Position numbers and translations under genes: made by a program | Notes under the pieces: model-generated | Told to the model about the DNA's origin: nothing | The model's input: only the letters and a program-made list of their open reading frames with translations | Database searches by the model: none | Shown: one piece after another, positions 5,217 to 63,608 of the stretch | Layout of the letters: each line of letters opens with the position of its first letter | Numbering within the stretch: position 1 is the first letter of the stretch | Assembly (NCBI GenBank): GCA_964016885.1 | Contig: OZ024758.1 | Coordinates: forward strand, 21,390,001 to 21,454,000 | Length of the DNA stretch: 64,000 nucleotides | From: Eledone cirrhosa | Lineage: Eukaryota | Direction: 5' to 3'

Positions 5217-5554
<338 letters not shown>

Positions 5555-5606: not shown

Positions 5607-5677
5607 ACTCTACTACCCATAGTATCGAGTACTCTGGTGCGTTATGATCCACCTGGTTCCTTACCATATTTCCTTCG

Positions 5678-5679
<2 letters not shown>
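5607..5679 (+). mobile_element. (TA)n-embedded element, family P2 tail only
   Basis: ACTCTACTACCCATAGTATCGAGTACTCTGGTGCGTTATGATCCACCTGGTTCCTTACC..CCTTCGTT matches the tails at 30936-31008 and 55216-55288. Confidence 0.8.
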
Positions 5680-9927: not shown

Positions 9928-10367
9928 ACCCGCGCGCATTTGCATGTGTGTGTGATTGAGTGTGTGTATAGATACGAAAATATGTACAACAAAGTTATGT
10001 ATTCAGTTTAAAATGTGATATATTGAAACCTCTTTACCTACAGATAACGGTTTCATGTTCTCTCCATTTTCTCAACGTTTTCTCTATGCCCTAACCCTTG
10101 ATAATGAATTGCATTAATGAATTGCATATCTGATTAATTGTTATTTAAATCTCTTCTTCAGCCAGCCTTATTTTTTCTTTAAAAAAAAACCTCTGTTCAC
10201 TAGTTCTTTAAACCCAACCATAAACCATAGTGATCCCAATTTTAAATTTATTTTCTACTTATTTAAAAATTCTGTCAAGAAATGCTTTAAATGTTATTAA
10301 GTCCCCTGAGAAAAATATTCTCATCATTCAATTTAATACAGAATTTATGACGTTACTTGATAAAATA

Positions 10368-10734
10368 CGTAGCTGGCAGATCAGAGAGTCACTCCAGCTA
10401 GAGACGCTAGTTCTCAGAATTGAGATATCACAGCTCAAATATATTGGCATGTGGTTAGAATGTCACTGGACAGATGCTATTGGCAAAACAAAAGGTGTAG
10501 ACACCGAGCAAGGTGGTTGGATAAGATCCATGAGCTTGGCTGGTCACGCTTGGGGATCCAGCTGGATCAATTGGAGATGGTTGCTTCTGACAGGATCAGC
10601 TGGAGGAAGTGTTTGAGACATTCTCAAGAAGAAGAGGAAGAAGAAAATGAAAAAGAAGAAGAAGAAGAAGAAGAAGAAGACGAAGAAGAAGAAGAAGAAG
10701 AAGAAGAAGAAGAAGAAGAAGAAGAAGAAGAAGA
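10368..10734 (+). mobile_element. RTE-clade LINE 3' end (frameshifted) with (GAA)n tail
   Basis: Translates as IRESLQLETLVLRIEISQLKYIG/HVVRMS...RARWLDKIHELGWSRLGIQLDQLEMVASDRISWR, typical RTE C-terminus; homologue at 61795-62110. Confidence 0.85.
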
Positions 10735-20448: not shown

Positions 20449-20700
20449 TTAAGAGTTAAACAAGGTTCAATGAATACATCAAAGAATGAGTTATACAATA
20501 TATTGGAAGCACTCAACTGTAGAAATGTTTTCCAGAGTTATTAATATTAATTCAAAATATTAACAAAATAGATATTATTGTGATCAATTATATTTTATTA
20601 TACATATTTTATTATACTTAACTCAGTACCTCTGAAATATGTATAATAAAATATAATTGATCAAAAGAATATCTATTTTGTTAATATTTTAAATTAATAT
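20449..20700 (-). mobile_element. (TA)n-embedded palindrome-head element (family P3)
   Basis: 66-bp inverted arms 20544-20609 / 20635-20700 (3 mismatches); minus-strand tail contains ACTCTGG...GTTGAGTGCTT; (TA)n on both sides. Confidence 0.65.
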
Positions 20701-20956: not shown

Positions 20957-21017
20957 GATAGAGCGCTCGTGATGTTTGCCCTAATCTGATTAGAGCAAAC
21001 ATCACGAGCGCTCTATC
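20957..21017. repeat. Hairpin palindrome, 30-bp arms, 1-nt loop
   Basis: GATAGAGCGCTCGTGATGTTTGCCCTAATC-T-GATTAGAGCAAACATCACGAGCGCTCTATC (1 mismatch). Confidence 0.95.
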
Positions 21018-26049: not shown

Positions 26050-26765
26050 ATTTCACCAGTCTGACTGATAGCCACACGAAACCAAACTATTTATCACAAG
26101 TTGCAGGCTTAATAACAATTATAATTAATTCAGACATACTCGATAATGATGCTTTCATTCCACCGCAATAAATATTTTATTTCCTACTTTCGAAGCTATT
26201 TAATTTTCCACAGTGTTTTAAGATAAATACACATTTTTAACTGCCAATTTATTCATGTTGTATTTTCTAATAAATTAGCTACTAACATTTCGCTGTGTCT
26301 AAAAAGCAATATAATAATTGCAAAATTATGTAAACGCTTCTGTCTACGAACGAAGATAACGTATTAAAATTAGATTAACATTGCGAATAAGTATACTACA
26401 CATACAGAGGATTTTAGTTCAGCAATGCCGCAGGATAAACATAAGCTCTTAGTCAGATTCGATATCTGATTTCAGTAATTTCGTATAACATATATCTCTA
26501 CTACCACGAGGAAAGAATTAATGTTATAGCATTCAATTCCTTTAACATAATATAAAATGGATATTTCTGTCTCTGTTAGAAACAAATGTAATATTCCGTA
26601 TTTTCTGCATCGTATTTAATAGTCACAAGCATGAAGAAGGTCCACTGTTCGGTTGGTGATATATCTACTACACATCTCTCGCGCTCTCTCTCTCTCTCTC
26701 TCTCTCTATCTCTATCTCTATCTCTCGCTCTCTCGCCACACACATATATATATATATAAATATAT

Positions 26766-26936
26766 ATATTTAATATAGAAATGGCTTCTACAGGGCTAGA
26801 ACTGTTTCATTCGAGAGAATGAAACAGTTTTACTCCTGTAGAAGCCATTTCTATATTAAATATTTATACTCTGCTATGTATTGAGTACCTTACTTACTGT
26901 GGTTACCAACCCCGATTGTTGAACCCGGGATAAACT

Positions 26937-26938
<2 letters not shown>
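26766..26938 (+). mobile_element. Palindrome-head (TA)n-embedded element, family P1
   Basis: 47-bp arms 26766-26812 / 26817-26863 (3 mismatches), loop GAGA, then tail TTATACTCTGCTATGTATTGAGTACC...GAACCCGGGATAAACTTA. Confidence 0.8.
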
Positions 26939-27011: not shown

Positions 27012-27208
27012 GTCTCGAGTTCAAACAGGGGTACCCACTGTAAATAAAGTACTGAATACATTAGTAGAGTGTAACAACAAATTTAATATATAAATGGCTT
27101 CTACAGGACTAGAGCTGTTTCATTCTCAGGAAACCATCAGGATAGACGATTTTCTTCGATTGAAACACTTCTAGTCCTGTTGAAGCCATTTCTATATTAA
27201 ACTTGTTA
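27012..27208 (-). mobile_element. Palindrome-head element, P1-related, reverse orientation
   Basis: 50-bp arms 27076-27125 / 27158-27207 homologous to the P1 arms; 32-nt loop; minus-strand tail ACTCTACTAATGTATTCAGTACTTT. Confidence 0.75.
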
Positions 27209-27573: not shown

Positions 27574-27683
27574 AAATAAGTTTTGAGTAGTAGAGTTGAT
27601 TTAATCAACGTTTTCCTCGTATATATATATATATATACGAGGAAAACGTTGATTAAATCAACTCTACTACTCAAAACTTATTT
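27574..27683. repeat. Perfect 110-bp palindrome centred on (AT)8
   Basis: 47-bp arms are exact reverse complements; the right arm continues into a decayed long-form SINE-A (to ~27780). Confidence 0.95.
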
Positions 27684-30195: not shown

Positions 30196-30711
30196 CTGGA
30201 AATTTCCAAAGTAAACCAATTTACATGGGACCAAAAAATGTTAGTACCTGTCCTATAAGAAATAGATAGAGAGTGCCATAGCTTAGGATTCACAGCAACG
30301 TAGCACTTCACATTTAAACCCGAGCGTTAGTGTTTAAACATTTAGTGTTTAATCATTTAGAATAACCATAGCTGGAAATGTCCAAAGTAAATCAATTTAC
30401 ATGGGACCAAAAAATGTTAGTACCTGTCCTATAAGAAATAGATAGATAGTGCCATAGCTTAGGATTCACAGCAACGTAGCACTTCACATTTAAACCCGAG
30501 CGTTAGTGTTTAAACATTTAGTGTTTAATCATTTAGAATAACCATAGCTGGAAATGTCCAAAGTAAATCAATTTACATGGGACCAAAAAATGTTAGTACC
30601 TGTCCTATAAGAAATAGATAGATAGTGTCATAGCTTAGGATTCACAGCAACGTATCACTTCATATTTAAACCCGAGGGTTAGTGTTTAATCATTTAGAAG
30701 ACCCATAGCTG
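30196..30711. repeat. Tandem repeat, 176-bp unit x3
   Basis: Units start at 30196, 30372 and 30548; near-identical; the third lacks one copy of the internal TTAGTGTTTAA(A/T)CAT repeat. Confidence 0.95.
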
Positions 30712-30798: not shown

Positions 30799-31006
30799 AT
30801 AGGAACAAGTAAGACCCCGACGGCTGAGCTCAAGCCGTTTCGACGGCTAATTCTGTACTGAAAGAATTCAGTACAGAATTAGCCGTCGAAACGGCTTCAG
30901 CTCAGCCGTCGGGGTCTTACTTGTTCCTATTACCCACTCTACTACCCTAAGTATTGAGTACTTTGGTGCGTTATGGTCCGCCTGGTTCCTTACCACTTTT
31001 CCTTCG

Positions 31007-31008
<2 letters not shown>
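30799..31008 (+). mobile_element. Palindrome-head (TA)n-embedded element, family P2
   Basis: 64-bp arms 30799-30862 / 30867-30930 (1 mismatch), 78-bp tail; contains GAAACGGCT...AGCCGTC hammerhead-like stem III; twin at 55063. Confidence 0.85.
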
Positions 31009-31088
<80 letters not shown>

Positions 31089-31089
<1 letters not shown>

Positions 31090-31300
31090 AGGCGCTTGGC
31101 TGAGAATTGGAGTCGCAATCCTGAGGTTGTGAGTTCGATTCCTGGACTGAGTGATGCGTTATGTTCTTGAGCAAGACACTTTATTTCACGTTGCTCCTTC
31201 TACCAGGAGTTGCGACCTATAGAGAGTATTTGCAATTGGAAAGACCAATGGAAATATTGTTTCCTCCTCGGTCCGATTTGAGGAAAGTCGATCGGTTTCT
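31089..31300 (+). mobile_element. tRNA-derived SINE family B
   Basis: B-box GAGTTCGATTCC; TGTTCTTGAGCAAGACACTTTATTTCACGTTGCTCC core. Confidence 0.8.
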
Positions 31301-31309
31301 ATCTTTATA

Positions 31310-31856
31310 CGAGGGTCGGCTGAAATGTTCATAGGGCCAAAGTTCATAGGATGACCAAATGAGGTTTATTTTTCGACAGTCCCTGAATAGCATCACTCGT
31401 TCGTAGGCTGACTAAATTGCTCTCATGGAATGATCAAAGGAAGTTTATTTTTCGATAGAGCCACTGGAAGAAAATAATGCAGTTATTAAGAAGAGGTGAA
31501 AAGAATGCATGCAAGATTTCAGAGCTCTAGCATCACTTCTTCACAGCCAGATCAAGATAAACTCATGGAATCACCAAATGAGGTTTATTTTTCAACATAT
31601 TCCATAAGAAAACAATGCCGTTATTAATAAGAAGAGTTGAAACTAATACATGCAAGATTTCACAGCTCTAGCATCACTCCTTCGAATGCTGACTAAAATG
31701 CTCTCCTGGAATGATCAAAGGAAGTTTATTTTTCGATATGATCACTGGAAGGAAATAATGCAGTTATTCAAAAGAAGAGAAGAAAGTAATTCATGCAAGA
31801 TTTCAGAGCTCAAGCATCACTCCATTTCAAGTTATGAACTGTTCAGCCCACCCTTG
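31310..31856. mobile_element. Tc1/mariner-type MITE with internal ~145-bp tandem repeats
   Basis: 25-bp TIR CGAGGGTCGGCTGAAATGTTCATAG / TTATGAACTGTTCAGCCCACCCTTG (20/25), TA on both sides; related end fragment at 42788-42905. Confidence 0.85.
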
Positions 31857-37235: not shown

Positions 37236-37770
37236 ATAATTGTTTCTACTTTTAGGCACAAGGCCAGCAAATAACCAGTATATTACTGGTACTTTATTTT
37301 ATCGACCCCGTAAGGATGAAAGGCAAAGTTAACCTCGGCGGGATTTGAACTCAGACTGTAAAGGGACGTAACTATGCTAGAAAGCATGACGTCCAACCCT
37401 CTACCGATACTGCCAATTCACCGCCATATATATAATTGTTTCTACTTTTGGCACAAGGCCAGCAATTACACAGTACATAACTGGTACTTTATTTTATCGA
37501 CCCCGTAAGGACGAAAGGCAAAGTTAACCTCGGCGGGATTTGAACTCAGAATGATAAGGGCCGTAACTCTCTCTATATATATAATTGTTTCTACTTTAGG
37601 CACAAGGCCAGCAAATTCACCAGTACATTACTGGTACTTTATGTTATCGACCCCGTAAGGATGAAAGGCAAAGTCAACCTCGACGGGATTTGAACTCAGA
37701 CCGTAAAGGGACGTAATTATGCTGGAAAGCATGACGTCCGACTCTCTACCGATACTGCCAATCCACCGCC
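37236..37770 (-). mobile_element. Three tandem SINE-A copies (37236-37425, 37432-37570 5'-truncated, 37581-37770)
   Basis: Same orientation; TSD-like CCATATATATAAT and CTCTATATATATAAT at the junctions. Confidence 0.92.
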
Positions 37771-38398
37771 CTCTATATATATATAATAACAGCATTTAAG
37801 ATTAAGAAGTGCTGCGAAATTCAATTTGGTGGGTTGCGGGAGGGGGGTCCAGATAAACATGTTTTGACCTTACATACAACATTTTCTGTCTTATTTGTTA
37901 GGCCTAGGGGTGATGGATGTATGGTATGTCAAAACCTCATGAAGGGTAATGATAGAAAACGGTTAAGGAGCACTCTTCTAGAGAGTCCTAAAAGCTACAT
38001 TTTACTGTATAAACTTCCGTATTTTAAAAGACCTGATGTGGAAGATATCAAACTTTGCGAAGCAGTTTATACAGATAATCTGATGAAGTCTTCTGTCTGG
38101 AATCTAGTCTATTAAACAATGCAGTACAATCGGAAATTGTTCAATGCTATACGAATATTTCTATAGTGAAATTGTTTAAAATAAATCCTATATATCTAAA
38201 CATAGAGAGATGACTTGCAGAATGTCCTCAGCTGCTTTGCTATTCATAGCAGTAGACAGAAGTTTGAGTGAACCTAATATATCTTTACGCATTATGAATT
38301 CATGTAAATAAATAAATGACAGTGAAAAAACTTTTATGATGTTCGATTAACATATTTTACTATTACTTCTTCAAATCCAAATAAACGAATTCAGATAG

Positions 38399-38846: not shown

Positions 38847-39046
38847 ATCAGGAGATTCAACTAGTATTAAACTAGTTAGATTATTATTCAACAGAGTACT
38901 CGATACGTGGGATACTAGAGTGTAACTGTATTAGAAAAAGTGGGGACACATCGGCTGAGCTTTTACCGTTTCAACACCCATTTCCAGTCTAGAATTAGAT
39001 GTTGAAACGGCAATAGCTCATCCGGCCCCTTCTAATAAACACACTC
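38847..39046 (-). mobile_element. Diverged palindrome-head element, P2-related
   Basis: CGGCTGAGC..CCGTTTCAACA / TGTTGAAACGG..AGCTCATCCG arms; minus-strand tail ACTCTAGTATCCCACGTATCGAGTACTCTG; microsatellite flanks. Confidence 0.65.
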
Positions 39047-47311: not shown

Positions 47312-47497
47312 GGCGGTGGATTGGCAGTATCTGTAGAGGGTCGGACGCCATGCTTTGATGCATAGAGTTACGGCCCTTGCCATTCTGAGTTCAAATCCAG
47401 CCGAGGTTAACTTTGCCTTTCATCCTTATGGGTTCGATAAAATAAAGTACCAGTAATGCACTGGATAATTGCTAGCCTTGTGCCTAAAGTAGAAACA
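47312..47497 (+). mobile_element. SINE-A short form, full length
   Basis: 13-bp TSD ATTATTAATAATG at 47299-47311 and 47498-47510. Confidence 0.95.
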
Positions 47498-47545
47498 ATT
47501 ATTAATAATGTTTGTACATATAATCAGCCTCCTATTCCGCTGAAG

Positions 47546-48552
47546 ATAATTGTTACTACATTTGGCACAAAGCCTGCAATAACCCAGTGTATTACTGGTA
47601 CTTTATGTTATCGACCCCGTAAGGATGAAAGGTAAAATTAGCCTCGGCGGGATTTGAACTCAGAACATAAAGGGCCGTAACTATTTGCTGGAAAGCATGG
47701 CGTCCGACCCTCTACCGATATTGCCAATTCATATTAACTACAAGTGAGAGTAATTAAAATAATTGTTTCTACTTTTGGCATGAGGCGAGCAATTACACAG
47801 TACATTACTGGTACTTTATTTTATCGACCCCCGTTACAATGAAAGGCAAGGTTAACCTCGGTGGAATTTTAACTCAGAATAGCAACGGCCTTAACTCTAT
47901 GCGTTAAAGCAGGGCGTTCGACCCTCTACCGATACTGCCAATCCACCGCCCTTATAAAGATAATAAAGATAATGCCTTATAAAGATAATGGTTTCTTATA
48001 TAGGCAAAAGGCCAGCAATTTGGGGGGAGGGGGAAGTCGAATAAATCGACCCCAGCTGCATGACTGGTACTTTATTTTATCGAGCCCATAAGGATGAAAG
48101 GCAAAGTTAACCTCGGCAGGATTTGAACTCAGAATGGCAAGGGCCGTAACTCTATGCGTCAACGCATGGCGTCCGACCATCAATCGATACTGCCAATACA
48201 CCGATAATTAACTACAAGTGAGAGTAATTAAAATAATTGTTTCTACTTTTGGCACAAGGCCAGCAATTAACCAGTACATTACTGGTACTTTATTTTATCG
48301 ACCCCGTAATTATGAAAGGCAAAGTTAACCTTAGAGGGATTTGAACTAATATCATAAAGGGACGTAAATAATTGTTTCTACTTTTGGCACAAGGCCAGCA
48401 ATTAACCAGTGCATTACTGGTACTTTATTTTATCGACCCCGTAAGGATGAAAGGCAAAGTTAACCTCGGCGGGATTTGAACTCAGAATGGCAAGGGCCGT
48501 AACTCTATGCATCAAAGCATGGCATCCAACCCTCTACCGATACTGCCAATTC
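47546..48552 (-). mobile_element. Array of five SINE-A copies (47546-47730, 47759-47950, 47985-48203 long form, 48233-48367 truncated, 48368-48552)
   Basis: All minus strand; nested duplications of 28 bp (47733-47760 / 48207-48234) and 17 bp (48356-48372 / 48554-48570). Confidence 0.93.
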
Positions 48553-48797
48553 AAAAGGGACGTAAATAATATTAGTCAAATAAAGATTGATGTATTTATA
48601 TGTTCCCTATTCAGACCCGTCAACTCCGTACATGTGGTTAAAAGTATCGGTTTATCTAAATGTGATTACTTCTCGGTTTCTATGTACAAGCCATAGAAAA
48701 CAATCAATTTATCACTGGCTTTCTTGAACATTAATATAACTAAGGACATGACTATGGATAGAAGAAAAGTTTCCAACATGAATGCAAATACGTATAC

Positions 48798-55062: not shown

Positions 55063-55067
<5 letters not shown>

Positions 55068-55286
55068 AACAAGTAAAACCCCGACGGTTGAGCTCAAGCC
55101 GTTTCGACGGCTAATTCTGTACTGAATGAAAAAGATTAATTGTTCATTCAGTACAGAATTAGCCGTCGAAACGGCTTGAGCTCAGCCGTCGGGGTCTTAC
55201 TTGTTTCTATTACCCACTCTACTACCCTAAGTATTGAGTACTTTGGTGCGTTATGGTCCACCTGGTTCCTTACCACATTTCCTTCG

Positions 55287-55288
<2 letters not shown>
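55063..55288 (+). mobile_element. Palindrome-head (TA)n-embedded element, family P2
   Basis: 68-bp arms 55063-55130 / 55143-55210 (3 mismatches), same ends and tail as 30799-31008. Confidence 0.85.
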
Positions 55289-55739: not shown

Positions 55740-56116
55740 TATACTCTAACCTGAACATCTGGAAGAGGGGTTTCCGTCTAGAAACTGCGAGGATAGTCTC
55801 ACCTGGGGACCGTTTTGCACCTAGAAAGCCCCGCCTCCCCGAGTCACAACACGAGGCAAGATAGTTTTGTGGGGAGCCAGCAGTCACTTATGCATACCAG
55901 TCTCCTCCTTTCCACGTCACCGATGTTGTCCAAGGGAAAAGCAAGGGCTGATAGTTTGACACCAATGACGTCGCCGCAATCTACTACAGCTGAGTGTAAT
56001 GGAGCAACATGAAATAAAGTGTCTTGCCGAATGCATCAACACACCACCCGATCAGGGAATTGAACTTACAACCTCTGATGTGTGAATCTCATACGCTAAC
56101 CACTAAGGCACGTGGC
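55740..56116 (-). mobile_element. Long tRNA-derived SINE (family B-related core, different tail)
   Basis: Minus strand GTGCCTTAGTGGTTAGCG...AGTTCAATTCC...GCAAGACACTTTATTTCATGTTGCTCC..CTCAGCTG. Confidence 0.7.
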
Positions 56117-62110: not shown

Positions 62111-63190
62111 CATTCTTTCCTGAGACATTCTAACCACATCTATATAGAGCCAAATTACTGTGAACATCACATTTTAAGGCATATTGCATTTCATATTGTA
62201 TTACCCAATGTAACCAAGTATATGATAACAGGGTGTGATTTGAGGGAGAATTGGCTAATGTGTGTATCAGTTAGGGAAACAAGGTAATATTTTCCATATT
62301 GGTTCATTGTTAATTGCAGAAAGTGGGAATTGTAAACTCTATTATATTTGCATACATCCATTAGATTTATTTACTGCTACAAAACACCAGAATTAAGTGC
62401 CTGCTTCAATAAATCATACGACTGCATACGTTATTTTCATATGTTTTCTTTTAATATTTATTTGTTACTCAATCTGAATAATATAAGCAAGCTCCGGGCA
62501 AGCGATACATTGATTGTTACACTTTACATTTCCGGGACTAGGGGTGAATCTGATGTTGAACTTAATAATCAATTAGTCCTGTTGAAATGTTTAGCTACAG
62601 GCTTTTGGTTTTGATATTATTAAATTGGAAATATTTCTTTGGCAACATCATTAAAAAGGAGTAAAAGTTTTCATGTGAAAGCCTTAATTGAAAATGTAAC
62701 ATTTTCGAGCTAAATGTTTTGGAGTTTAGTTAAATGGAAATATAAATTTATTTTATGGCTTTGTAGCCCCACATGATATCAGCTCTCATTATCTCTACAG
62801 ATACACCTGAAAATGAATGGCTAAAAATTATGAAGGGAAATGATTTTAATAGCTGATTTCAACACAGTTACAAAACCAGATCACTGTTAACTAATCTTCA
62901 CTCAAGAGCACTGACATTATCGATCTAATGAGTGTTTCCTGTATACAAGTAAGTTTCTCTCTTACGAGTTAGGGTCAGGGTTAATGCAAATACAATAAGA
63001 GAAACGCGAGTAATATAACTATGGTTTAAAACCATTTCAGACATCGAATGTGTTGAGTGTTTACATATTCCAGTGATTGGAAGAGGTACCTCTGAAAACA
63101 TTTCGTTTTTAGATTTTGATATAGAGTCAATGATTTTGGTGAAACCCCTGACATGACAAAAACCAAACAGAAAGTAATGTTATCAATAAT

Positions 63191-63608
63191 GGTTTCTTAT
63201 ATGGGCACAATGCCAGCAATTTGGGGGGAGGGGAAACGTCGATTAAATCAACCACAGGGTATTACTGGTACTTTATTTTATCGACCCTGTAAGGATGAAA
63301 GGCAAAGTTAACCTCGGCGGGATTTGAACTCAGATCATAAAGGGACGTAACTCCATGCTGCAAAGCATGGCGTCTGACCCTGTACCGATACTGCCAATCC
63401 ACCGCCCTGTAATGTTATCAATAATTGTTTCTACTTTAGGCACAAGGCCAGCAATTAACCAGTGCATTACTGGTACTTTATTTTATCGACCCCCGTAAGG
63501 ATGAAAGGCAAAGTCAACCTCGGCGGGATTTGAACTCAGATCGTAAAGGGACGTAACTATGCTGGAAAGCATGGCGTCCGACACTCTACGGATACTGCCA
63601 ATCCACCA
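63191..63608 (-). mobile_element. Two tandem SINE-A copies (63191-63408 long form; 63421-63608 short form)
   Basis: 17-bp TSD GTAATGTTATCAATAAT at 63174-63190 and 63409-63425. Confidence 0.93.

Follow-up and report, generated by a model that had tools for sequence, protein, structure and literature searches.

Insertions of Penelope-like elements (PLEs) are described as 5'-truncated and often adjoining an inverted, likewise 5'-truncated copy, with a tail of 30-40 bp at one end (PMC8557442; PMC3846280). The same sources give microsatellites as the targets, with a bias towards (TA)n, and (TA)n targets are listed for 26 of 27 families of the Hydra clade (PMC8557442). AT-rich DNA is nicked by a PLE protein in vitro, with extension of both strands; the cDNA begins at two internal start sites that bound the tail, and hammerhead cleavage was dispensable for insertion in the one PLE assayed in this way (PMC11167929). 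A palindromic helix III is described as a trait of PLE hammerheads (PMC4209133). Among the 25 Hydra hammerheads listed in PMC8557442, 14 have a TGAA layout and four have an ACAG/CTGT stem III.

We analysed a 64,000-nt stretch of Eledone cirrhosa DNA (the window), which is AT-rich and microsatellite-rich, has repeats of cephalopod-like appearance and contains two very similar elements, copy a (30799-31008, plus strand) and copy b (55063-55288, plus strand). We propose, with a probability of about 0.74, that each is one insertion of a PLE that probably belongs to the Hydra clade. Only the last 140-160 bases of the parent would have been copied, in a forward copy that includes the tail and an inverted copy that lacks it, placed head to head in (TA)n. 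Copy a begins with an inverted arm (30799-30862, minus strand), a tail-less copy of the element end whose outer end adjoins (TA)n, and continues with a 4-nt centre (30863-30866) that would be the junction of two truncated copies, a forward arm (30867-30930, plus strand) and a 78-nt tail (30931-31008, plus strand) with a conserved stem motif at 30936-30961; the (TA)40 run on its right (31008-31087) is the presumed target microsatellite. Copy b has a tail-less inverted arm (55063-55130, minus strand), a 12-nt centre (55131-55142, plus strand), a forward arm (55143-55210, plus strand) and a 78-nt tail (55211-55288, plus strand) with the stem motif at 55216-55241. The first and last bases are identical between the two copies, each is flanked by (TA)n runs, and they differ by a 16-nt central indel and by seven substitutions over about 210 positions (two in the left 64 nt, four in the right 143 nt and one in the centre). 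Direct comparison therefore confirms the initial annotation, which had described twin elements with identical outer ends, few substitutions, and loops of 4 and 12 nt. The hairpin of copy a has 64-bp arms, a 4-nt loop and one mismatch, and that of copy b has 68-bp arms, a 12-nt loop and three mismatches; the folding z is about -19 for each, none of 200 shuffles of either copy was equally stable, and in both the 78-nt tail lies unpaired 3' of the hairpin.

The right arm had been read at the outset as a hammerhead 3' half, comprising stem III, a GUC site and a strand of stem I, and this reading stands. In copy a the half spans 30888-30916 (plus strand), with GAAA, stem III at 30891-30896/30904-30909, a predicted cleavage base at 30910 and the 3' strand of stem I; in copy b it spans 55168-55196 (plus strand), with stem III at 55171-55176/55184-55189 around a palindromic loop and a predicted cleavage base at 55190. 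Both forward arms carry GAAAC, a 6-bp stem III and a GUC site, as does the inverted arm of copy a. The inverted arm of copy b has one change, which leaves a stem III scored at 4 bp, so the further claim that the half lies on both strands holds for copy a and only partly for copy b. With a pattern chosen after sight of the sequence, the 6-bp version was found in 5 of 5,000 dinucleotide shuffles of the copy b arm and tail, the 5-bp version in 37 of 5,000, and the 4-bp version seen in the sister family P1 (see below) in 63 of 5,000. Helix III and its loop are palindromic except for one base. We consider the right arm very likely to be a genuine hammerhead 3' half, and likely one by descent rather than by present function.

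The other half of the ribozyme is missing. A descriptor search for a full hammerhead in cis, requiring the CUGANGA core together with closed stems I and II, found none at either copy, and no CUGANGA was seen for the a/b family. The letters CTGAAAGA and CTGAATGA do lie at the hairpin tips, where the initial annotation had placed them; they are the reverse complement of the forward arm, are one base longer than CUGANGA and have no stem I partner ahead of them. Rfam returned no hammerhead match on two tested sub-regions, and the best 150 of its 310 matches across the whole window were all of microRNA type or to 3'UTR elements, below the gathering score. The hammerhead-half pattern had no matches in metagenome, genome and viral contig collections.

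The window contains five more relatives of copies a and b, the sister family P1 included. A tail-only copy of the a/b family (5607-5679, plus strand) is 89-92% identical, lies in (TA)n and has the same 3' end; an older, divergent relative with hairpin and tail (38860-39040, minus strand, limits approximate) is about 70-77% identical in parts. Members of P1 have different arms arranged in the same order, namely hairpin, GAAAC, stem III, NUH and a common tail motif, the last lying 47-51 nt after GAAAC in P1 and 48 nt after it in copies a and b. One P1 copy (26761-26937, plus strand) has a hairpin centred on the predicted stem II loop, its own hammerhead 3' half and the same tail motif. In another (27040-27207, minus strand), the forward arm reaches a decayed CUGAUGA core with one change, CTGATGG, 19 nt before GAAA, followed by a 3-bp stem II and TGAA; CTGAnG occurred in that range in 1,688 of 200,000 shuffles. 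The inverted arm of this copy also extends into the decayed core, and carries A at the position of the deviant G of the forward arm. A third P1 member is a 3' fragment consisting of the arm end and tail (5391-5478, plus strand). We considered the possibility that the fold-back is always centred on the stem II loop; this fits the copy at 26761-26937 but not that at 27040-27207, and so is not general. Each of the five two-armed copies in the window has a centre of its own. About 68 nt of unassigned sequence (5323-5390) lie between (TA)n and the P1 fragment, where an inverted arm would be expected.

The initial annotation had tied its reading of the missing half to the existence of a relative with CUGANGA or to covariation in stem III. 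Each is found in part: the P1 copy at 27040-27207 has its decayed CUGAUGA core, and one stem III pair that is G-C in the a/b family is A-U in P1, a compensatory change read by eye in an alignment where MAFFT left stem III unaligned, with no compensatory change within the a/b family among the 40 of 77 variant rows listed. The initial annotation did not name a class for the elements; we suggest that 5' truncation and inversion of a PLE end explain the missing CUGANGA half better than the idea first put forward, which was cleavage of the half in trans.

Other repeats in the window include a perfect palindrome at 27574-27683, with 55-bp arms and a (TA)n centre, that shares 10 nt of its arms with the beginning of the tail motif and has no hammerhead half, and that gave the top sub-threshold Rfam microRNA matches. 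Two more palindromes, at 20544-20700 (66-bp AT-rich arms, 25-nt spacer) and 20957-21017 (30-bp arms, 1-nt loop), match neither family. Tandem repeats lie on either side of copy a, at 30196-30697 (176 bp x 2.9, 97% match) and 31388-31823 (141 bp x 3.1), and near 31310 is what we take to be a mariner-like terminus. Directly after the (TA)n of copy a, 31088-31197 is presumably a tRNA-type SINE-like head; a 79% similar copy (56001-56075), oppositely oriented, follows copy b at a distance of about 700 nt. A very frequent SINE-like repeat of 190-370 nt is found at 37239-37779, 47315-48553, 63174-63607 and many more places, and an inverted pair of it forms a palindrome with 120-bp arms at 47383-47665. 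An open frame of 130 codons at 10224-10613 has no Pfam match and looks like the C-terminal end of a LINE protein.

The stem motif in the tail consists of RCTC, three paired bases, a loop, a 2-nt bulge, GWGY and AC. Its strict form occurs four times in the window, each time inside these elements (mean of 60 shuffles, 0.13), and in random strands it arises within 60 nt in 19 of 200,000 cases. The same stem can be recognised by eye in three of six Hydra consensi in the supplement of PMC8557442 (Hydra-2_Amil, Hydra-2_Ajap and Hydra-1_Crog), with a descriptor that was written after sight of both sets and covers these six consensi rather than the 21 Repbase Hydra ends. In those three it lies, again by eye, 38-47 nt after the hammerhead cleavage base and shows paired changes, whereas the remaining three run for no more than 36-47 nt beyond that base. 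Because the tail folds no better than shuffles (z -0.3 to -1.1), the case for the stem is one of conservation. The tail pattern had no matches in metagenomes, and a shorter version matched four bacterial loci (L001-L004), which we take to be chance. Two motifs of the a/b family had no matches in the supplement of PMC8557442, and the family is therefore not among the consensi given there. The elements also have the (TA)n insertion preference, which is common to Naiad PLEs too and hence is not specific to the Hydra clade. On the by-eye comparison of sequences, the parent probably belonged to the Hydra clade.

To see the family beyond the window, sequencing runs were searched with the centre, forward arm and tail of copy b as the reference. 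Matches were found in 19,991 of 17.1 million contigs of run X1, 505 of 762,587 contigs of run X4 and 24,144 of 12.5 million RAD reads of run X13, counts that indicate high abundance rather than copy number; run X5, with two matching contigs of 36.1 million and a depth of about 2, was left out. Inverted copies end at 55210, followed by (TA)n, in 3,273 X13 reads, 73 X1 contigs and six X4 contigs, such that this position is a fixed end of inverted copies across the family. Depth drops steeply to the left of 55155 and is near zero over the centre of copy b, which indicates that this centre is rare. Among 15 of 20 joints listed, 14 of the 15 connect opposite strands, with sides at 55146-55166 and 55187-55249, and they read as long inverted arms adjoining much shorter forward copies; the joints were called at 82% likeness, where repeat artefacts are possible, and symmetric hairpin joints are absent among those listed. 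Joints at 55207-55208 may reflect divergence between subfamilies. Loose ends include an inverted arm joined at 55146 (57 X1 contigs, agreement 0.55) and (TA)n joined near 55160 (101 contigs, agreement 0.51).

A few loose ends have other sequence ahead of the hairpin. A longer form upstream of the copy b centre, present in five X1 contigs and three X4 contigs, has CGGCTA and a TATA-like run; CGGCTA is able to pair with the TAGCCG before GAAA, and could represent either stem II (its 5' strand) or a piece of an inverted arm. The copy b centre matches this longer form from about 55133 onward in five contigs, and on this match is likely to be template-derived. In X13, a loose end before 55160 (1,553 reads, agreement 0.71) has a different upstream sequence and apparent changes at 55164, 55176, 55177 and 55203; it is probably a distinct subfamily or the product of a few RAD loci, and is a candidate for a longer template. 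We did not accept the X13 read ends at 55157 and 55146 as element ends: they fall on AATT sites and we infer that they are restriction cuts of the library. An X4 loose end with AGAG where CUGAAGAG could end was too weak to use (two contigs, agreement 0.65).

Three features of the locus are those of PLE insertions: an adjoining inverted truncated copy, a tail on one side only, and variable 5' truncation with a fixed 3' end. There are two fixed outer ends, equivalent to 55210 and 55288 of copy b, and the inner ends vary. We suggest that the fixed outer ends, the one-sided tail and the variable centre result from nicking and two-start insertion by a PLE. By analogy with published PLE work, a PLE reverse transcriptase-endonuclease would nick AT-rich DNA, cDNA synthesis would begin at one or other of two internal sites flanking the tail, and priming would be possible from both DNA strands. 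The palindrome could then arise from two short cDNAs, or from one cDNA that folds back and primes itself. Both cDNAs would stop about 10-45 nt upstream of GAAA, leaving the CUGANGA half behind, and the half-ribozyme would be carried along from the terminal repeat of the parent; it is probably a leftover passenger of the parent element rather than a working part. Each copy would be a separate insertion that lost CUGANGA through truncation. Later deletion within a cruciform is another possible source of the differences between centres. A Pfam search of 145 of the 179 non-repetitive ORFs of the window found no reverse transcriptase or endonuclease remnant, with sub-threshold hits in three, and six short Hydra motifs in six frames likewise found none in the 64-kb window, within which no coding partner was found.

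The range of 5' truncation is narrow, clustering shortly before GAAA in the copies seen, and few longer copies are found, though ordinary 5' truncation should leave them. A bolder option is that a short RNA starts near 55146. Loose ends in five and three contigs have the TATA-like run about 25 nt before 55146, an initiator-like TCATTC lies at 55144-55149, and the copy a forward arm and 57 contigs start at 55146; only few contigs bear on the option. We offer tentatively, as a possibility that we ourselves doubt, a fuller version in which a and b represent a SINE-like, non-autonomous class of Hydra-type Penelope elements. Their RNA would start at a promoter inside the hammerhead stem II loop, and so would lack CUGANGA; in each insertion, opposite nicked strands would prime two run-off cDNAs at the two starts bounding the tail, and these would be joined head to head; and the tail stem, which the present elements would share with those of cnidarians, echinoderms and crustaceans, would be a binding signal for the PLE protein.

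We considered other origins for the elements. They might derive from a PLE and yet move as a finished hairpin-plus-tail unit from a few master copies, with the loop differences produced by later deletion at the tip. The seven differences between copies a and b, the fact that their inner ends stop within 13 nt of each other, the recurrent junction at 55146 (57 X1 contigs, agreement 0.55) and the depth drop left of 55155 would all suit such a process, but the five centres in five window copies, and the existence of tail-only and arm-less forms, would not. Moreover, no arm-specific change is common to a and b, the copy b centre matches a longer form with other upstream letters (five contigs), and the end of the inverted arm is a fixed internal site, which is also a feature of PLE insertions; we therefore regard movement from master copies as unlikely. 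A non-autonomous DNA element that targets (TA)n, whether fold-back, MITE-like or Helitron/Helentron-like, with a ribozyme-like motif that is a chance occurrence or was captured, seems to us less probable still. The long inverted repeat, the TT end that both families have, preceded at 8-13 nt by a small hairpin, the lack of CUGANGA in the a/b family and the lack of an Rfam match are consistent with it. However, MITEs have terminal inverted repeats at both ends, and here the inverted repeat leaves 78 nt of the element outside it, such that we rejected this assignment. Helitrons and Helentrons are marked either by TC...CTRR ends or by a 3' hairpin together with subterminal inverted repeats at both ends; the ends here are not TC and CTRR and no repeat pairs the two ends, while a small 3' hairpin and TT end are present. 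Tail-only and asymmetric copies have a common 3' end, and the hammerhead half and tail stem recur in the divergent P1 family and in published Hydra PLE ends. MITEs and short elements of the Helentron type are also short, high-copy and hairpin-forming, with TA-rich targets, but copies a and b lack terminal inverted repeats at both ends and have a 3'-anchored truncation series and a ribozyme remnant.

The proposal of the initial annotation, that the half-hammerhead on each strand is cleaved in trans by a CUGANGA-bearing partner RNA, has in its favour the presence of the half motif on both strands, the predicted formation of stem III in a single-arm transcript alone, and the suggestion that PLE hammerheads with a palindromic helix III act as dimers (PMC4209133). 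In RNA of the whole element, however, the half-ribozyme region is predicted to be buried on either strand, about 96% paired inside a duplex of 64-68 bp, with a mean unpaired probability of 0.036-0.040 and a stem III closing-pair probability of 0.0 in four of four strand cases. Variants in the family, A>T at 55184 (31% of X1 depth) and C>T at 55187 (19%), each break a stem III pair, with no compensating change among the 40 of 77 variant rows listed, and cleavage was not required for insertion by one PLE in vitro (PMC11167929). A role as a trans-cleaved substrate is thus not borne out by these data, and we consider it very improbable. As for copies a and b being parts of one local segmental duplication, their high identity and 24-kb spacing might suggest this, but we give the idea almost no credence: the likeness ends at (TA)n, the 3-kb flanks share dispersed repeats only, at non-collinear offsets, and the family is present in thousands of contigs. 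The initial annotation had named a larger duplication as a finding that would undo its account, and with flanks out of register there is none.

If the PLE reading is correct, these hairpins are ordinary products of Penelope-like retrotransposition and no new ribozyme function is needed. Thousands of minimal insertions would record the starts and stops of cDNAs, and such records could show whether PLE inverted repeats originate by self-priming or by two-strand priming, a matter left open in the accounts given in PMC3846280, PMC8557442 and PMC11167929. The tail stem that these elements share with Hydra-clade ends is a candidate cis-signal suited to the published in vitro PLE assay. Elements of this kind probably tend to be mistaken for MITEs or microRNA hairpins in annotation, and dispersed hairpins of 64-68 bp would be a source of double-stranded RNA, if transcribed. 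We found no published description of the a/b family or of short hairpin-tail PLE families in a search that lay outside Repbase, Dfam and most subscription papers, so they are possibly catalogued already.

Among described elements, non-LTR retrozymes (bioRxiv 10.64898/2026.07.22.740005) are similar in being short, non-coding and hammerhead-bearing, and in being proposed PLE derivatives. As described there, their units are arranged in direct tandem and every unit contains a complete type I hammerhead, whereas copies a and b are inverted, dispersed and coreless, and we did not assign them to that class. The PLE insertions with an inverted pLTR and tail described in PMC3846280 and PMC11167929 are closer, with a head-to-head tail-less copy, a variable junction, two fixed 3' ends and an AT-rich target; those are long or full-length copies, whereas here the hairpin and tail stand alone at high copy. 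The a/b tail, at 78 nt, is longer than the 30-40 given for PLEs (PMC8557442; PMC3846280). Hydra-clade PLEs, as presented in PMC8557442, share the (TA)n targets and a type I hammerhead near the 3' end, and one listed family has a 5'-truncated inverted copy. P1 fits the hammerhead layout listed for them, namely a core with an extra base, a short stem II, TGAA and, as in four of 25 families, an ACAG/CTGT stem III. They differ from the present elements in that here there is no ORF, only 140-160 nt are copied and the tail is 78 nt; their stem III is 3-4 bp with a loop of 1-3 nt, in contrast to 6 bp and 7 nt in copies a and b, and the tail motif lies 38-47 nt after the cleavage base in the Hydra consensi as opposed to 25-27 nt here (PMC8557442).
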